Sequence record: OK272470.1
Direction: 5' to 3' (one strand)
DNA: 64,000 nucleotides
Origin: Escherichia phage JLBYU50
The translations under genes and the position numbers were made by a program. Shown in pieces: positions 2,351 through 48,441 of the stretch; the first letter of the stretch is position 1, and every line of letters starts with the position of its first letter. The notes below the pieces were generated by a model, which had not been told where the DNA came from, made no database searches, and saw only the letters and a list, made by a program, of their open reading frames with translations.

Positions 2351-5226
2351 TGTCAAGAATTAAGCACAGAATTGACAATGTTTTTCAACTGATCGATGGA
2401 CATATTCAGTTCTTAGATCGTAATACAGGTTTAACTGTAGATCCTACAGTGCAACACTATGTATTAAACCCACAAAACGTTCTAGCTAATAACAGACACT
2501 TTATAAACTGGACTGCTCAAGAAGGGCAACCAAACGGGGATGCTACAACAGAAGGTCAATCCGTGCTTATTCTTGGTTGCGCTTATGCATACCTGGCTTC
2601 CGGCGATACAAAGTATTTAGACTCTGCTAAAAAATATTGGCAAGCCTATATAGATTACTTCTTTGGTGGTCAACCTATCCCAGATCCGCCAGCAAAGTAT
2701 CGCCCTAACTGGATTATTAACGGTAAAGAACCACGTCTTGCACATTATCCTCTTACAGATGATGGCTACCCTACACACGGAGGTTTTAAGGGTAGCTTAA
2801 TGACGTGGACTAACGGTAGAACAGTTATTCCTCATGGTGCTCCACATTGGGGAGAATACCTTGACAAAGCATGGTTTGCTTTTAATGGTAATCTAGGATG
2901 GAACTCTGTAAACGCTACAGTATATGCTGTTAATGCAGATGGTACAACAGATTGGTCTAAGAAGGGAGATCAATGGGATGTTGATTGGATCATTGATCGT
3001 CTAGGACGTAAAGTTGATTGGGATGGAAATATCTTAGAAGAAGGTTTTCCAACATCTCAATACGGAACAGTTCAACTAAAAAATACTTCTGTAAATGGTA
3101 CATATAAATTTAACTACGCGACTTGTAACCCTGTTGAACACGGTGGTTATTTAATGGAGCGTAACACTATGTGGCATAACAGACCAGTTAACGTTCCGGT
3201 AGAAATGGGCTTTCAGGATAATGCGTCAGATGCCGAAACTTGGTGGTGTGATGCTAATTACCTGATGTACCAAATTACAGGGGAAAGAAAATATTGGCTA
3301 TGCTGGCAGTCTTCACTGTTAGTGTGTCAAGATTATTCAAACATTGATATGTTTGATAAATTCTTCCGTAAGTCTACATATGCAACTATTCCGTTTACAG
3401 ATGGCATCTCTTACGATTATTCGTATCCATCTACAGCAATACCTAAATATTCAAGAGATACTTTAGGTTATATTGTTATTAGACAAGATGTTGCTGCTCA
3501 AACAACATTAGAACAGCAAGCCATTTGGTTTAAAGTTGATCAGAACTCTAAGTTACGAGTCCAGTTTCAAGGTGTAGATGACGCAGGACAGGGTATTCTT
3601 TTCCGTCCAGAGTTGGAATTAAGTAAGACCAAAGATGAAAATAACACAGTAACTTACCGCTGTGGCTTACCACTAGGTACAGCTAATATGACAAGCATGG
3701 ATATTCCACTATCCAGCTTTATGAGAAGTACCCCTCCTAGTGGTGGAACATATATTATCGCAGATCCGCGAATTATTGTTGACTGGGGTGACAATACTGT
3801 GGTACAATATAAGTATGTAACAGGTATTGCTGGAACTAATAATGACCAGATTGTTACTGCATCAATGGATACGGATGGTGGTATCACTGTTGGTTTTTGG
3901 TTAACTCCTACATCAAAAGCTAATGTTAAGTCTATTACATATAGAACATATGAAGATGACTTTAACATGACTATCACGGATGCTCAAGGTTGGAGATGGT
4001 GGGTTATGCTTCCTAAAACACAAGGAGCATGGAGTACGAAGACTTTATCAGCTTCTGATTTTAAGTTAAGTGCTTACCAGCCTAATCATCCAGATACAGA
4101 TCCTAAACCTTCAGCAATAAATCTTACTGCGGTAGATCAGGTAAATTTAGTTCTTGATACGGCTCCTGTAAATGGTTTAACAGGAACAATAGATTTCTAT
4201 TGTATTAACGATGTACCTGAAAGATATTCGTCATCTTCTGGTGATGATTATACCATGTACTTCCGTATTACTGTACAGGCTTCAAGTCCTCATACTGCTA
4301 AATTAGGTGATTGTACTATTATTGACTATAAATTAAATAGTCTTAATTACACACCAGGAATAATTCCATTCTCTAATATCAGTGACCCAAACACTGCATT
4401 ATACGATGGATGGCGTGGTATTCCATACCCAGGATACCAGTATCCTTCCTTATACTGTTTCGCAGGTAGGGATATTGATTGGACACGTTTAAACAACAGT
4501 ATTGATTTCTTGTATGATGCTCAAATGTGGTTTTATAACACGTTTGATCCTGTGATGCCTGGGCCTATGGCACAAGCATATGTGTGGGATCGTTGGGATG
4601 CAAGAAAATACGGTGAACCTAATACGTTTACAATGAAACACTGGAATGAAAAAGCGTGGGATGGTTATGAAGCTCGTGCATTCTACTGTGCTTGTCATGC
4701 TGTATACGAACTTGTACAAAGAGGAGAAACACCTCCTGAAAAACTAGTAACTGTTTGTAAAAATTGGATCAACTACCTTAAATGGTTCCAAGACAATAAT
4801 GATGGAAGAACACCAACTATCTTTAACCCAGATGGTACAGTTCTTGCTCCTATAGATGACTTTACTAGTCATATGTCTGCACTGTTTATGGCGGGTTGTT
4901 CAATCATGGGCTTGGCAGGTTATGATTCACAAATTCCAAACATTGGTATTGTAGCAGACAGATGTTTTGATCTGATTCAGCAAAACTATATTGTGCTTTC
5001 CCCTAACCATCCGATGAATGGTTCCTGGAGTGTTGCACCACGCCCAGATTCAGATAACGGAATGTTCTTTGGTTTCCATGCTGGAGAACTATTACGTGGT
5101 TTTGGTTTATATGCCTTGTATCGTAAACTAAACCCTCAAAACGCTTTACCAATTTTGGATAATAGTAACATACCAACACTAACTGTTCTAACTATGAATG
5201 ATATTAGTGTTGATGTAACCAAATAA
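2350..5226 (+). CDS. large virion protein, putative tail fibre/baseplate-associated carbohydrate-active protein
   Basis: 958-aa ORF, Trp/Tyr/Asp-rich, translationally coupled to neighbours. Confidence 0.55.
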   Translation: MSRIKHRIDNVFQLIDGHIQFLDRNTGLTVDPTVQHYVLNPQNVLANNRHFINWTAQEGQPNGDATTEGQSVLILGCAYAYLASGDTKYLDSAKKYWQAYIDYFFGGQPIPDPPAKYRPNWIINGKEPRLAHYPLTDDGYPTHGGFKGSLMTWTNGRTVIPHGAPHWGEYLDKAWFAFNGNLGWNSVNATVYAVNADGTTDWSKKGDQWDVDWIIDRLGRKVDWDGNILEEGFPTSQYGTVQLKNTSVNGTYKFNYATCNPVEHGGYLMERNTMWHNRPVNVPVEMGFQDNASDAETWWCDANYLMYQITGERKYWLCWQSSLLVCQDYSNIDMFDKFFRKSTYATIPFTDGISYDYSYPSTAIPKYSRDTLGYIVIRQDVAAQTTLEQQAIWFKVDQNSKLRVQFQGVDDAGQGILFRPELELSKTKDENNTVTYRCGLPLGTANMTSMDIPLSSFMRSTPPSGGTYIIADPRIIVDWGDNTVVQYKYVTGIAGTNNDQIVTASMDTDGGITVGFWLTPTSKANVKSITYRTYEDDFNMTITDAQGWRWWVMLPKTQGAWSTKTLSASDFKLSAYQPNHPDTDPKPSAINLTAVDQVNLVLDTAPVNGLTGTIDFYCINDVPERYSSSSGDDYTMYFRITVQASSPHTAKLGDCTIIDYKLNSLNYTPGIIPFSNISDPNTALYDGWRGIPYPGYQYPSLYCFAGRDIDWTRLNNSIDFLYDAQMWFYNTFDPVMPGPMAQAYVWDRWDARKYGEPNTFTMKHWNEKAWDGYEARAFYCACHAVYELVQRGETPPEKLVTVCKNWINYLKWFQDNNDGRTPTIFNPDGTVLAPIDDFTSHMSALFMAGCSIMGLAGYDSQIPNIGIVADRCFDLIQQNYIVLSPNHPMNGSWSVAPRPDSDNGMFFGFHAGELLRGFGLYALYRKLNPQNALPILDNSNIPTLTVLTMNDISVDVTK

Positions 5227-43849: not shown

Positions 43850-44320
43850 TTAGTCAGATTCCCAAATGTTGTCTTTCTTAACCCACATTCGTTGATTATC
43901 TGAACCTCTATAACGTTTCGTTGTTGGTTGATTCATATCATACTTACCATCTATCACTATGTCAACCAGTTTTTTAATTTTTTCTGGAATTTCTTCAAAA
44001 AGATATCCTGTATATAAGACAATATCTTTTTTGTTTCCAAAACAATCTCTTACCTTTTCAAGAACATACTCTACAGTATCAATGTTCTCTTTGTCAAGAG
44101 GTTCACCACCTAAAACTGTTAATCCTTTAATGAAAGGTCGAGATAAATCTTTCAAGATAAGATCTAATGTTTCAGTAGTGAACTCTTGTCCGTAGTTATA
44201 CGACCAGGCTTTCTGGTTAAAGCAGCCACGGCAACCGTGGCTACAACCGCTCACCCACAAAGAGCATCTTACACCGTCACCGTTGAGCATGTCAACAGGT
44301 TCATATCCGGCGTAATTCAA
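43850..44320 (-). CDS. nrdG: anaerobic ribonucleotide reductase activating protein (radical SAM)
   Basis: CSHGCRGCFN radical-SAM cysteine cluster; 156 aa; start overlaps nrdD stop. Confidence 0.8.
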   Translation of the reverse strand: MNYAGYEPVDMLNGDGVRCSLWVSGCSHGCRGCFNQKAWSYNYGQEFTTETLDLILKDLSRPFIKGLTVLGGEPLDKENIDTVEYVLEKVRDCFGNKKDIVLYTGYLFEEIPEKIKKLVDIVIDGKYDMNQPTTKRYRGSDNQRMWVKKDNIWESD

Positions 44321-46116
44321 AAATGTTTCTCCCTTTCTAATACTTCTTGCATTTTACCTTTATTATAAGGGCGAGAGTTAGGGGCAGAAAGGTATCCTGA
44401 CACTCTTCTGATCACAGATATGGATTCTTCTTCATGATTACCGCAACTTGGACACTCGAAGCCTTTAGCCGTTGCTTTAAATTCACCATGAAAACCACAT
44501 TTGAAACACTGATCTACAGGTTGGTTCACGCCAAAATAAGGAATTTTATTGTAGGCATAATCTACAAGAGTTTCCAGTGCTTGCAAGTTATTTTTAAGGT
44601 TTGGTGTTTCTACATAACCTATGTTCCCACCATTACTAATTTGTGCAAAACCTTCCTCATAATCCCACTTTTGGAACGGGGTAGTGTGCATCCACACAGG
44701 TTGATGGAAAGAGTTTGTCAAGTAGTCACGATCAATAGAACCAGGATAGCGATCATTTAATGCTTTGGCAAATTTATAGCACAAGGATTCTGCTGGTGTT
44801 CCATACAAACTAAAAGCTAAACCAGAACGTTCTTTAAATGTGCCACAGATATCCTTCATATATTGAAGGATGTTTTTACCCATTGCTTTTGGATTGGTGT
44901 TACCTGGGTATAAAATCTCCATAGCTTCTGCTAAACCTACGTAACCGATACTAATAGAGGCATAACCACCTTCGAATAGTTTACCAATCTCTTCATTAGC
45001 TTCTAGTCGAGCTAAAGCCCCTTCCATAAACAATGTAGGGTTTTGAGATGCTTTGGTATGTCTAATACGGTTAACACGTAGCATATGTGCCTTATACGCC
45101 ATCTCCATATGTTGTTCCAACAGTTCAGTAAATAAGATGCCCTTTTCACGGGACTCTGCTGCAATGATAGGTAAGTTTAAAGAAACTACGCCTAAGTTGA
45201 AACGACCATCATATTTTTCACCTTGCTCTGTTGCATAGTATGACAAGAAGCTACGGCAACCCATGCTTGTGACGCGACCATCTGAAGATCCTGTAACCTC
45301 TTTGTTTAAAGGTACAGAGATAAAATCAGGATAAATGCGTTCAGCACAACACTCCATTGCCAGTTGCTTCAAATCATAGTTTGGATCGCCAGCTTTCATG
45401 TTAACACCATCTTCCAAGAAGAAGATAACTTTAGGAAACACAGGAGTTACTCTATCTTTTCCCAACCCTTGTTTGTGCACCATTAGGTAGTTTTTAGTGA
45501 TCATTCTACCAAAAGCAGAGGTATCCAAGCCTAAACTAATTGTTATAAAAGGTGACTGACCATTTACACTCATTAGAGTGTTCACCTGGTAGATTAAAGT
45601 TTGCATTGCATCATAGACCTGTTTATCTACCATACGCATAGCAATATCATAATCACCAACATCAGCATATATTTTATTAAAACTTGCTTTAACGTATTGA
45701 CTAAGCCCAGTATCAACATGTGCACAAGTTTGTCCACCATATTGGCTAGAAGCTACTGCTTGAATAATTTGAGTTAGGACAGTAGTCGCTACACCGATAG
45801 ATTTTGGTTTTTCAATATGTGCATTACCAATACGGAAACCGTTCTCAAGCATATCTTGGTAATTTACCAGGCAACAATTAGTTAAAGGTGAGAGTAAATA
45901 ATCTAAATCGTGGATGTGACCATACCCACTTTTATGCCATTCTGCTAAATCTTCAGGTAAAATATGGGTCATTGCCATGTGCTTGCTTAGGATACCTGCT
46001 AGTAAATCTCGGTGAGTATTAACAATCATTGCAGGTTTGTTTGCATTTTCACGAGTAAATTCTTCGGATGTTTGTTCGAGGAATCCGATTACATCCTCAT
46101 ATAGTTTTTGGGTCAT
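44317..46116 (-). CDS. nrdD: anaerobic ribonucleoside-triphosphate reductase
   Basis: 599 aa; C-terminal Zn ribbon CFKCG...CPSCGNHEE and glycyl-radical motif RRVSGYL. Confidence 0.85.
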   Translation of the reverse strand: MTQKLYEDVIGFLEQTSEEFTRENANKPAMIVNTHRDLLAGILSKHMAMTHILPEDLAEWHKSGYGHIHDLDYLLSPLTNCCLVNYQDMLENGFRIGNAHIEKPKSIGVATTVLTQIIQAVASSQYGGQTCAHVDTGLSQYVKASFNKIYADVGDYDIAMRMVDKQVYDAMQTLIYQVNTLMSVNGQSPFITISLGLDTSAFGRMITKNYLMVHKQGLGKDRVTPVFPKVIFFLEDGVNMKAGDPNYDLKQLAMECCAERIYPDFISVPLNKEVTGSSDGRVTSMGCRSFLSYYATEQGEKYDGRFNLGVVSLNLPIIAAESREKGILFTELLEQHMEMAYKAHMLRVNRIRHTKASQNPTLFMEGALARLEANEEIGKLFEGGYASISIGYVGLAEAMEILYPGNTNPKAMGKNILQYMKDICGTFKERSGLAFSLYGTPAESLCYKFAKALNDRYPGSIDRDYLTNSFHQPVWMHTTPFQKWDYEEGFAQISNGGNIGYVETPNLKNNLQALETLVDYAYNKIPYFGVNQPVDQCFKCGFHGEFKATAKGFECPSCGNHEEESISVIRRVSGYLSAPNSRPYNKGKMQEVLEREKHF

Positions 46117-46135: not shown

Positions 46136-46160
46136 AAAGCCAGCTTAATGCTGGCTTTAG
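46136..46160 (-). terminator. rho-independent terminator
   Basis: aagccagc-ttaat-gctggctt hairpin followed on - strand by TTATTTTCC. Confidence 0.65.
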
Positions 46161-46205: not shown

Positions 46206-47156
46206 TTAGTCAAGGTTTTTGGTAATACGTGTACAACCGTCAGAAGTCAAACCGTCAACTTGAGTTTCCCAAGTACCATGAATATTTCGGAACAATGTTG
46301 TTACACCTTTTGGTTCATTAATAATGATTGCCATAACAAGTTTAGGATCGATAACAGACATAATCTTTTCCTCAATACCCTCTGTAATAACATTATTGCG
46401 CACAATATTAATTGCATCTTCTTGTACAGTAAGAGCACTTACGTTCTTAAGAGTATATACCTGCTGCGTAGTGTAAATGATACGAACATAGCTTACAGAA
46501 CGAGTAGGCACAGGTTTACGCGGTCGGCGAAAACGTGGTTTTGGTGAAGATTCAGTCTTACTTTCATTTTTTGAATAATACTCCTCAAACAGTTTAGTAA
46601 ATGTTTTTACATCAACTACAAATCGATCTTTCCTATATGGAGAATTCTTATGTGCACCATTAATACCACTGTTTTCATCGAAGAAAGTAATGTTTTCTTC
46701 AGTTGAATACATTAGATAATGATCTGCATTTTTCCAATGTGGTTGTGGACAATGAGGATTACAAACGGAAAGCAAGTAATTAATATTTTCTTCCGTGGCC
46801 TCAGTATCCAGGAAACACGTATTATGCACAGTCAGTTGTACTTTTTCAGCCATATCTTTTTCTTTATCCTCTTTAGCAAGATATTCAGTACGAATAATCT
46901 CCAGAAAACCTTCAGGTGTTACTTCCATAAATTTATATTCAGGATGAAGCTCCATATATTCAAATCCACAACCATCTAATTGCTGTAGAAAGTTAGGGTA
47001 GAAGAACAAGTCATTAACACTATGAATCAGATCATTGATTTCTGCTTCAGATGTGTAACCAAAACTTTTGTGAATTGCTTCGTTAAGAATATGCAGGATA
47101 CCCATCTCTTCTGCTGCTTTTTTAACTTCCAGTTTATTAGCGTAAAATGCAATCAT
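46206..47156 (-). CDS. hypothetical protein
   Basis: 316-aa ORF. Confidence 0.5.
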   Translation of the reverse strand: MIAFYANKLEVKKAAEEMGILHILNEAIHKSFGYTSEAEINDLIHSVNDLFFYPNFLQQLDGCGFEYMELHPEYKFMEVTPEGFLEIIRTEYLAKEDKEKDMAEKVQLTVHNTCFLDTEATEENINYLLSVCNPHCPQPHWKNADHYLMYSTEENITFFDENSGINGAHKNSPYRKDRFVVDVKTFTKLFEEYYSKNESKTESSPKPRFRRPRKPVPTRSVSYVRIIYTTQQVYTLKNVSALTVQEDAINIVRNNVITEGIEEKIMSVIDPKLVMAIIINEPKGVTTLFRNIHGTWETQVDGLTSDGCTRITKNLD

Positions 47157-47173: not shown

Positions 47174-47608
47174 TTAGTTTAAAATTTCTTTTGCAATGGT
47201 AGAAGCAAGTTTTCCATCATATTGATTCGGATACTCTGCTTTAAGGTGTTTCATCATATCTGGCATTTTCTTGCCTGTCAAGGCAAATTCTTCAGCAATA
47301 GCTCGAAGATCATCTTCAGATAGCATTTCTGGCAAATATTTTTCCAGAGTGGTGATATCACGCATAGCTCGCTCACATTTGCTAATGGAGGCATTAACTT
47401 TCTTAAGCGAGTCTAGTTCCTCTTTAGCGTGTGCAATACCAATCTTAACAATGTTAATCATAATATCGTCTTCTGATTTATTCAGATTTACCTTTTGAGT
47501 ACGAGCAAGGTCAAACTCACCAATAATATTAGTTAACAAAGCAAAAGCACCCTTATCGGTTGTACGTGCTAAGATACGATCTGCTTTCATTTGTGTCACA
47601 ATAGACAT
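47174..47608 (-). CDS. YqeY/GatB C-terminal-like domain protein
   Basis: KYLPEMLSEDDLRAIAEEFALTGKKMPDMMKHLKAEYPNQYDGKLASTIAKEIL matches YqeY signature (YLPxQLSEEE..., GRADGKLVS). Confidence 0.6.
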   Translation of the reverse strand: MSIVTQMKADRILARTTDKGAFALLTNIIGEFDLARTQKVNLNKSEDDIMINIVKIGIAHAKEELDSLKKVNASISKCERAMRDITTLEKYLPEMLSEDDLRAIAEEFALTGKKMPDMMKHLKAEYPNQYDGKLASTIAKEILN

Positions 47609-47620
47609 TCTATTCTCCTC

Positions 47621-48193
47621 TTATTCGCTAATGCTTTGAATCTTATTTACAACACGGTTTATTGCCAGTGAAGCCCTAGGCTCCGCAATACCTGTTGCAT
47701 AGATATAAGGATGACCTTTTGGAGACTCCCTCATACCGAATGAACCTAATTCTAAACCATATTCATCCTCTACGTCAACCCCCATATTAGTGGGTACTAA
47801 ATATGTTTTAACTCCATAATAAGTAGAGAAGAAACAGCGCATAGCGTTAGCATACTCTTCAATTGTAGCATCAGGGTAGAACTCAATCAACTCCAATTTC
47901 AAGAAAATATTAAAATGAGTATCATCTAAATTTTCTTCTGTGCGGTAACATGGTGTTAGTGCCATATACGGATTACCTACTGCAAATTCAAAACCATCCT
48001 TCTCCATTTGCAGGAAAGATTGTTCTGCACTAGCTACATAGTATTTACCGTTAGGATGCCCTAATGGGCGATCCTCTTTATTTTCTGGTAGTGTATACGC
48101 CAGTATATCAGCATCCACGAGATATGGAACTTCTAACATTTGTGCAAATCGACCATAGTAATCAATAGCTTGAGCTATTACTGCAACATTCAT
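47621..48193 (-). CDS. hypothetical protein (possible class II aminoacyl-tRNA synthetase-like core)
   Basis: CYRTEENLDDTHFNIFLKLELIEF resembles class II motif 2 (fRxE...H..EF..E); weak motif-3-like GIAEPRASLAI. Confidence 0.3.
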   Translation of the reverse strand: MNVAVIAQAIDYYGRFAQMLEVPYLVDADILAYTLPENKEDRPLGHPNGKYYVASAEQSFLQMEKDGFEFAVGNPYMALTPCYRTEENLDDTHFNIFLKLELIEFYPDATIEEYANAMRCFFSTYYGVKTYLVPTNMGVDVEDEYGLELGSFGMRESPKGHPYIYATGIAEPRASLAINRVVNKIQSISE

Positions 48194-48441
48194 GATCGAC
48201 CTCCATTGCGGAATGCACGTTTAGTAATGTTTGACATAGTGATCAAATCTTGAAGCGTCATACCAGGAAAATGCTGTTCAAGAACACCTTCAACAGCGCC
48301 TACAATATCTGACAACTCAATAAGTTGCATCAGCTTGCAATCTTGATCAATAGCATCTTGAAGTTCATAAAGCTCTTCTTGAATCTTAGCAACAGAACCA
48401 TACTCCTCTTTGCTAATCTCCTTCAAATGATACCCTGCCAC
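48190..48441 (-). CDS. hypothetical protein (possible MazG-like all-alpha NTP pyrophosphatase)
   Basis: EELYELQDAI ... ELSDIVGAVEGVLEQ acidic helix pattern; weak. Confidence 0.3.
   Translation of the reverse strand: MAGYHLKEISKEEYGSVAKIQEELYELQDAIDQDCKLMQLIELSDIVGAVEGVLEQHFPGMTLQDLITMSNITKRAFRNGGRS

Follow-up and report, generated by a model that had tools for sequence, protein, structure and literature searches.

Escherichia phage JLBYU50 (OK272470.1) is an E. coli myovirus of ~146 kb that belongs to the phi92-like Justusliebigvirus phages, and the 64,000-nt stretch of its genome analysed here (hereafter, the window) encodes on its minus strand a two-gene module, made of an 83-amino-acid (aa) HisE/MazG-like protein and a 190-aa protein that corresponds to the bare catalytic core of a class II aminoacyl-tRNA synthetase (aaRS) of the seryl (SerRS) type (Table 1). 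The two open reading frames (ORFs) share an ATGA stop/start overlap, and the GGAGG ribosome-binding site of the core gene sits within the 3' end of the MazG-like coding sequence; the overlap points to translational coupling of the two genes. Next in the series is a 144-aa ORF of the YqeY type, which has its own GAGGAG ribosome-binding site and starts 12 nt past the stop codon of the core. An earlier reading of the interval 47174-48193 (hereafter, the original prediction) had suggested that the 144-aa and 190-aa ORFs may be a functional pair; both lie on the minus strand where it placed them and contain the peptides it quoted, but it missed the true partner of the core, the 83-aa ORF (48190-48441), which lies just outside that interval. 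The surrounding 4.3 kb share 99% identity with phage vB_Eco_J-01 and 98.4% with genes 194-198 of phi92.

A SerRS-like class II catalytic core

Searched as a single sequence, the 190-aa protein had its best Pfam match to tRNA-synt_2d, below threshold (12.1 bits against a cut-off of 19.8, E = 0.13), while no NCBIfam model was matched at E ≤ 1, the serS equivalog model included, and the PDB sequences returned no match. An alignment of 42 core sequences, however, displays clear class II signatures, and the profile built from it matched Aquifex SerRS (E = 4.6e-5), then AspRS and PylRS. Structurally, the AlphaFold2 (AF2) model of the core (pLDDT 94.9) has the antiparallel beta-sheet fold of class II enzymes, and Foldseek aligned it to the catalytic domains of PylRS (top match) and SerRS with probability 1.0 and TM-scores of 0.71-0.75. 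The class II, aaRS-like call of the original prediction thus stands on conserved motifs and on fold, though not on the Pfam class II models.

Motifs 1, 2 and 3 are all present, including their invariant Pro and both Arg, and a hidden Markov model (HMM) alignment to Aquifex and E. coli SerRS brings VPYLV (motif 1), SAE/TAE, TPCYRxE/TPCFRSE and F-x-K-x-E into register. In the C-terminal half, inspection combined with the predicted strand order pairs ELGSFG with EISSCS, and ATGIAEPR with GSGLAVGR, of E. coli SerRS; on this model-aided comparison, E148/S151 and T167/R173 of the core would have SerRS counterparts. The core begins at motif 1, and the alignment to the bare SerRS catalytic core takes in 185 of its 190 residues; it has no match to Pfam Seryl_tRNA_N, the N-terminal coiled-coil tRNA-binding arm being absent, and no anticodon-binding domain. 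It is, then, a SerRS-type catalytic core stripped of the coiled-coil arm and of all insertions. Compared with a bacterial-type SerRS, it is less than half the size, lacks that arm, has the insertions of the catalytic domain trimmed, matches neither the NCBIfam serS model nor, above threshold, the Pfam class II models and, unlike SerRS, is paired or fused with a MazG/HisE-like protein, and it is probably not a conventional SerRS. Public records name the gene 'histidyl tRNA synthetase', 'putative seryl-tRNA synthetase' or 'putative tRNA synthetase'. We rejected the HisRS/HisZ identity carried by the PHROG and GenBank labels: the sequence motifs are of the SerRS type, and neither HisRS motifs nor the HisRS anticodon-binding domain were found.

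An exhaustive search of 1.84 billion representatives, clustered at 50% identity, placed 1,303 clusters in the core family at E ≤ 1e-3 and 765 at E ≤ 1e-10, most of them 170-210 aa long. Across 195 family members, S55, E57, R84 and F97 are invariant, C82, K99, E101, S151, T167, P172 and R173 are each kept in 194, E148 in 192, and P23 of motif 1 in 191. All of the class II residues that serve ATP-Mg binding and acyl-adenylate formation are retained (the motif 2 Arg, the stacking Phe, the Glu/Ser metal ligands and the motif 3 Arg), and so, it appears, are the SerRS-type substrate residues (SAE in place of TAE, the E of F-x-K-x-E, and the Thr six positions before the motif 3 Arg). Such a near-invariant catalytic set is what an active adenylate-forming enzyme would show, and not a HisZ-like pseudo-enzyme. 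This bears on an explanation that we consider quite improbable, in which the core would be a HisZ-like regulatory pseudo-synthetase: on sensing an amino acid or ATP, it would exert allosteric control over a MazG-like NTP pyrophosphohydrolase that manages the (d)NTP pool beside NrdD/NrdG. Such neighbours are indeed found at this locus (Table 1), but nucleotide-metabolism genes are sporadic around the module; moreover, the catalytic Arg, Glu and Ser that HisZ has lost, along with catalysis itself, are invariant in the core family, and its motifs are of the SerRS and not the HisRS type.

The motif 2 loop, which in class II enzymes normally touches the acceptor stem of the tRNA, is where the core departs further from SerRS. 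It comprises 11-12 residues, with a net negative charge in 154 of 161 members (mode -4), whereas the loop of E. coli SerRS has 18 residues and a charge of +1, making the core loop six residues shorter and acidic where that of bacterial-type SerRS is basic.

Genomic context was compared across 79 loci, 64 of them viral and 15 from species-representative genomes; because all 15 of the latter lie on contigs of metagenome-assembled genomes, we regard the core family as essentially viral. The only relative of the core in Klebsiella phage KP2025 is a degenerate protein (L069:7053-7625, minus strand; 190 aa, 36.7 bits to the family HMM); it has lost E57, F97/K99/E101, E148/S151 and R173, has no MazG-like neighbour, and lies 56 kb from the slot that holds YqeY in that phage. 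A 190-aa protein of phage phAPEC8 (BFVD K7QJG2) with 17% identity and the same fold may be an ortholog of this degenerate paralog, and no such paralog is present in the 64-kb window.

A MazG/HisE-like protein is the partner of the core

The 83-aa ORF behaves as a conserved, obligate-like partner of the core. A MazG-like gene was recovered in 62 of the 64 viral loci by phmmer and, as a neighbour of the core, in 75 of the 79 loci by HMM; in 46 of these 62 it abuts or overlaps the 5' end of the core gene on the same strand, with the others lying 0.1-1.4 kb upstream (eight), immediately downstream (four), fused to the core (three) or in an ambiguous position (one). Natural core-MazG fusions occur at viral loci (L050, L056 and L060) and at loci binned as archaeal (L078, L079 and L081). 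Among the 195 family proteins, 8 are fusions; these are 260-281 aa long, and place the core N-terminally and the MazG-like part C-terminally across a conserved GYH..IPK junction. In a natural fusion modelled with AF2 (pLDDT 90.3, pTM 0.67), three helices come after the core. When all ORFs of the 64 viral loci were clustered all-against-all, no other sense-strand family turned up in more than seven loci, and Pfam censuses found both the downstream neighbours (72 non-redundant loci) and the upstream neighbours to be heterogeneous. Across 50,697 phage genomes, the MazG-like subfamily, located by tblastn, is found in 263 and the core in 272, with adjacent coordinates wherever both are listed, and the counts per lineage match (MazG-like/core: Caulobacter 13/13, Pectobacterium 10/10, Cronobacter 8/8, Brevundimonas 7/7 and Erwinia 6/6). 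This roughly one-to-one co-occurrence, together with adjacency and fusion, argues that the core and the MazG-like protein act as one enzyme.

Functionally, the 83-aa family can be read from its conserved positions: Y4, H5, K19, E22, E23, E26, E42, D45, F77 and R82 are invariant in 40-59 members, D29 is 88-90% conserved, and the carboxylates form the EExxE...ExxD metal motif of all-alpha nucleoside-triphosphate (NTP) pyrophosphohydrolases. Among 40 members, Pfam PRA-PH was matched by 28 (best 2.2e-4) and MazG by five, and the NCBIfam HisE model TIGR03188 by 20 (best 7.9e-5); in PDB, a PRA-PH (2a7w, 0.039) and a MazG-like protein (1vmg, 0.086) were matched with the EExxE motif aligned. The protein of the window scores 15.2 bits against Pfam PRA-PH (cut-off 21.3), and no family HMM exceeds its curated threshold. 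The gene is mostly annotated as 'hypothetical protein', and some Acinetobacter-phage records already say 'MazG-like'.

Like HisE/MazG/MazZ-type enzymes, then, the partner is a small helical protein with the EExxE...ExxD cluster and with weak HMM matches in three libraries; unlike them, it carries a family signature of its own (N-terminal GYH, C-terminal TKRAFxxGxR) and is coupled to a class II core, a tie that is not known for HisE or MazG. MazZ of the Z-genome phages provides a precedent, as a phage MazG-like enzyme that supplies a nucleoside monophosphate to a partner ligase.

Two other identities were considered for the 83-aa protein. An acyl or peptidyl carrier protein was rejected, as the Ser of the ELSD motif varies (S/A/C, with ELAD and ELCD) and is less than 80% conserved, so that no invariant phosphopantetheine-attachment Ser is present, while E42 and D45 are invariant. 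A detached N-terminal arm of SerRS is disfavoured by the fusions, which place the partner C-terminally, and by retention of the hydrolase-type metal cluster.

At L078:6795-7457 and L081:6771-7454, on contigs assigned to Nanoarchaeota/archaeon by binning, stop/start coupling links the fused gene to a ~225-aa radical-SAM/4Fe-4S protein with only generic, sub-threshold MoaA, viperin and NrdG-like matches, in surroundings that look cellular (TrxB-like, M50 protease, metallophosphoesterase). Thymidylate synthase or radical-SAM genes adjoin the module in a few loci.

YqeY is an independent neighbour

The 144-aa ORF is of the YqeY type, as the original prediction had proposed. It matches Pfam PF09424 above the cut-off (29.8 bits against 27, E = 7.5e-7, profile positions 40-143 of 143) and phrog_1460 (E = 1.4e-36), and its close homologs (at least 63% identity) all lie on contigs of ~140-156 kb, most with a precomputed PF09424 match. 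By these sequence comparisons it is a genuine but divergent, marginal stand-alone member of the YqeY family. Its public names are 'tRNA amidotransferase', 'Asp/Glu-tRNA synthetase / YqeY-like' and 'Asn/Gln-tRNA amidotransferase subunit B'.

Pairing of YqeY with the core is another matter. That the two form a dedicated pair acting on aminoacyl-tRNA we judge to be very improbable, even though the genes are 12 nt apart in one operon and YqeY domains are known as tRNA-associated parts of GatB and Deinococcus GlnRS. Their adjacency is confined to ~55 near-identical (95-99%) phi92-like genomes of one genus; of the 72 non-redundant loci in the Pfam census, just one has YqeY as the next gene downstream, and across the 79 loci it is found in two by HMM, both phi92-like, and in the same two by phmmer. 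Each gene also comes and goes without the other. In phAPEC8, of a sister genus, the order is helicase, 83-aa gene, core, p316-like gene and NrdD, without YqeY, whereas KP2025 has YqeY in the same slot and, by whole-genome tblastn, no core or MazG-like gene apart from the distant degenerate relative. At the scale of the 50,697 phage genomes, YqeY is found in 151, a set largely different from the 272 with the core, and ~95 other phage genomes, for example those of T5-like Vibrio phages, have YqeY without the core. Together, the scans of the 79 loci, the neighbour censuses and the checks of the phAPEC8 and KP2025 genomes lead us to reject YqeY as a conserved partner; it is an independent, genus-specific insertion beside the module in the same Justusliebigvirus operon.

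The original prediction had named a missing class II fold together with a pair not conserved as neighbours as what would speak against it; the fold is present, and the pair is not conserved. It had also called the pair unusual phage cargo, which overstates the case given these genome counts and the existence of PHROG families and GenBank names for both genes. Indeed, aaRS-like and YqeY-like calls are already in the databases, under inconsistent names.

In the T5-like Vibrio phage Thalassa (L089:2396-2839), a YqeY homolog stands alone within a tRNA array, between tRNA-Val and tRNA-Trp, a location suggesting that YqeY by itself is phage cargo with a link to tRNA. Three records labelled as Campylobacter jejuni phages also encode members of these families: 'Campylobacter phage A150' (MG065639) and 'C3' (MG065656) share 98.8% (MazG-like), 97.4% (core) and 99.3% (YqeY) identity with E. 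coli phi92-like phages, and the core of 'B15' (MG065650), at 81%, is near phAPEC8-like ones. The Campylobacter host labels of all three look doubtful.

Proposed function and alternatives

We favour, at about an even chance, a reading in which the core and its partner form one active two-subunit enzyme that would join aminoacyl-adenylate chemistry to NTP pyrophosphohydrolysis, probably with a non-canonical acceptor. Mechanistically, the core would most likely activate serine or a similar small amino acid to an aminoacyl-AMP, the SerRS-type residues making seryl-AMP the most likely adenylate, and the MazG-like partner, probably a pyrophosphohydrolase because the full carboxylate metal cluster is kept, would most likely cleave the alpha-beta bond of a nucleoside-triphosphate-type substrate. 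The aminoacyl group would then probably, and this is the more tentative step, be passed to a non-canonical acceptor instead of to tRNASer in the standard way, and this acceptor could be a nucleotide or a small molecule on which the MazG-like subunit acts. Three features suggest a non-canonical acceptor, namely the lack of any tRNA-binding module, the short acidic motif 2 loop, and the use of non-tRNA acceptors by stand-alone class II paralogs such as AsnA, EpmA/PoxA and the amino acid:[carrier protein] ligases.

Several observations weigh against this reading. The C-terminal match to SerRS residues comes from inspection and predicted topology, the alignment obtained being short and local; the MazG/HisE assignment of the 83-aa family is built on sub-threshold matches, and hhalign gave no significant match of this family to E. 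coli MazG or HisI, each taken as a single sequence; and at four loci the core is catalytically intact and no MazG-like gene lies within 4-6 kb of it. The proposed chemistry is deduced entirely from residue conservation. Finally, in 12 of 60 viral loci ARAGORN placed tRNA genes within 4 kb of the core, the module thus lying within or beside tRNA arrays, and here it abuts YqeY, two facts that keep a tRNA-directed role plausible.

The alternative that follows is a minimal split SerRS, or another tRNA-directed enzyme, in which the core would aminoacylate a host or phage tRNA or modify a tRNA end, the MazG-like protein would be an accessory factor, and YqeY would serve in the phi92-like phages as a tRNA-binding helper in trans, comparable to PylSc plus PylSn. 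We regard it as possible, if on the whole rather unlikely. The SerRS-type active site is conserved across the 195 family members, YqeY adjoins the core here, and Foldseek ranks PylRS catalytic domains first, which charge tRNA although no large domains are appended to them. The tRNA-array loci moreover span several lineages, with the module inside the array at L023, L025, L037, L041/L042 and L064, and their share exceeds a rough chance expectation of 5-10% that we estimated from the KP2025 array (7.3 kb of 149.5 kb), a moderate enrichment. Conversely, no tRNA lies within 4 kb in 80% of the loci, and the tRNA regions of phages are hotspots for accessory genes in general. The core also has neither coiled-coil arm nor anticodon-binding domain, its motif 2 loop is shortened and acidic, the NTP-hydrolase metal site of the partner has no obvious role in charging, and YqeY is not conserved with the module. 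Of the tRNA-array loci, L023, L025, L034, L037, L041, L042, L043, L058 and L064, with the module at ~3700-4600 in each, represent several unrelated large phages.

Split PylRS is a useful comparison for the favoured two-subunit enzyme as well. As with PylSc and PylSn, a small class II core is encoded beside a small, separate helper gene, and PylRS leads the Foldseek matches; however, PylSn serves to bind tRNA, whereas the MazG-like partner looks like an NTP pyrophosphohydrolase, and the core lacks the tRNA-binding elements of PylSc. The amino acid:[carrier protein] ligases (Bll0957, PDB 3mey) are likewise SerRS-derived class II cores without tRNA-binding domains, but their partner is a carrier protein, and the core here is ~100 aa smaller, of the bacterial SerRS type by its motifs, and forms a viral family. 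HisZ, AsnA and EpmA/PoxA differ from it in origin and size, deriving from HisRS, AspRS/AsnRS and LysRS, respectively, and each having ~300 aa or more.

Gene order and transcription unit

The module sits in a run of minus-strand genes between a UvrD-type helicase and an anaerobic ribonucleotide reductase (RNR) gene pair (Table 1). The hairpin 3' of the 316-aa ORF (p316) is, from its position, the likely end of a helicase/MazG-like/core/YqeY/p316 transcription unit; promoter and terminator scans of the region gave site counts equal to chance expectation.

Table 1 Features of the MazG-like/core locus in the 64,000-nt window of Escherichia phage JLBYU50.
Feature	Position	Strand	Remarks
DUF4326-type protein, 136 aa	51556-51966	minus	
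UvrD-type helicase, 591 aa	48452-50227	minus	directly upstream of module; without intein here
HisE/MazG-like ORF, 83 aa, GTG start	48190..48441	minus	phrog_6408, E = 2.5e-43
ATGA stop/start overlap, MazG-like gene/core	48190..48193	minus	direct sequence reading
Minimal class II aaRS catalytic core, SerRS type, 190 aa	47621..48193	minus	
Stand-alone YqeY/GatB-tail-type protein, 144 aa	47174..47608	minus	PF09424, phrog_1460
316-aa ORF (p316)	46206-47156	minus	phrog_15930 'ribonucleotide reductase', E = 6e-183
Terminator-like hairpin AAAGCCAGC-ATTAA-GCTGGCTTT, then T-run	46136..46158	minus	3' of 316-aa ORF; consensus scan
NrdD, 599 aa	44317-46116	minus	
NrdG, 156 aa	within 43850-46116 (NrdD/NrdG pair)	minus	TIGR02491, E = 1.4e-48

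NrdD and NrdG form a class III anaerobic RNR pair with a 4-nt overlap, two genes downstream of the module. The RNR label that p316 takes from phrog_15930 has no support from Pfam or NCBIfam and seems unfounded; only the C-terminal part of this protein is kept in phAPEC8 gp043 (463 aa) and in a 321-aa KP2025 protein. The helicase contains an intein in some close relatives (L001:920-3739, a 940-aa ORF with Intein_splicing and Hint matches), and phage PaulScherrer has an annotated intein in the same UvrD-type helicase. DUF4326 homologs recur just downstream of the module in the Erwinia-phage-like loci L005-L007, and make up 3 of the 72 downstream neighbours. GC skew over the 64 kb is positive at ~1-22 kb, negative at ~22-56 kb and positive beyond ~56 kb; between 44 and 52 kb, the part for which ORFs were listed, every long ORF is on the minus strand, which fits the negative-skew block. 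No tRNA genes were found in the window. A role as a known anti-phage defence component was rejected, PADLOC giving no matches.

Significance

The feature of substance at this locus is thus a module of a MazG/HisE-like protein and a minimal SerRS-like core that is widespread in large phages and, as a two-part enzyme, new to the literature that we searched. A full-text search returned no functional or comparative description of it, only passing annotations: in one phage genome paper, 'MazG g118/g119' and 'SerRS g121' appear as uncommented entries (PMC8953757), a review of aaRS paralogs gives SLIMP and the amino acid:[carrier protein] ligases as the ones derived from SerRS (PMC9437257), and a comparative study of jumbo phages brings up MazG-like enzymes and aaRS genes, but never together (PMC7824862). 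The labels in use, 'histidyl tRNA synthetase', 'seryl-tRNA synthetase', 'tRNA amidotransferase' and 'Asp/Glu-tRNA synthetase', overstate present knowledge.

Evolutionarily, an intact active site in ~190 residues comes near the theoretical minimal core of work on synthetase origins. A bolder and, in our view, unlikely proposal is that this is the smallest natural catalytically competent class II core, which with its 83-aa subunit would make a virus-specific enzyme, either charging tRNA with hardly any of the customary recognition elements and with trans factors such as YqeY (a natural 'urzyme plus helper' split SerRS) or forming an aminoacyl-nucleotide conjugate that is not known from cellular metabolism. 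Stand-alone class II paralogs have each revealed new biochemistry, as AsnA, HisZ, EpmA and the amino acid:[carrier protein] ligases illustrate. We found no described architecture that couples or fuses such a core to an NTP-pyrophosphohydrolase-like domain, and the phage module offers a concrete, testable two-protein system.

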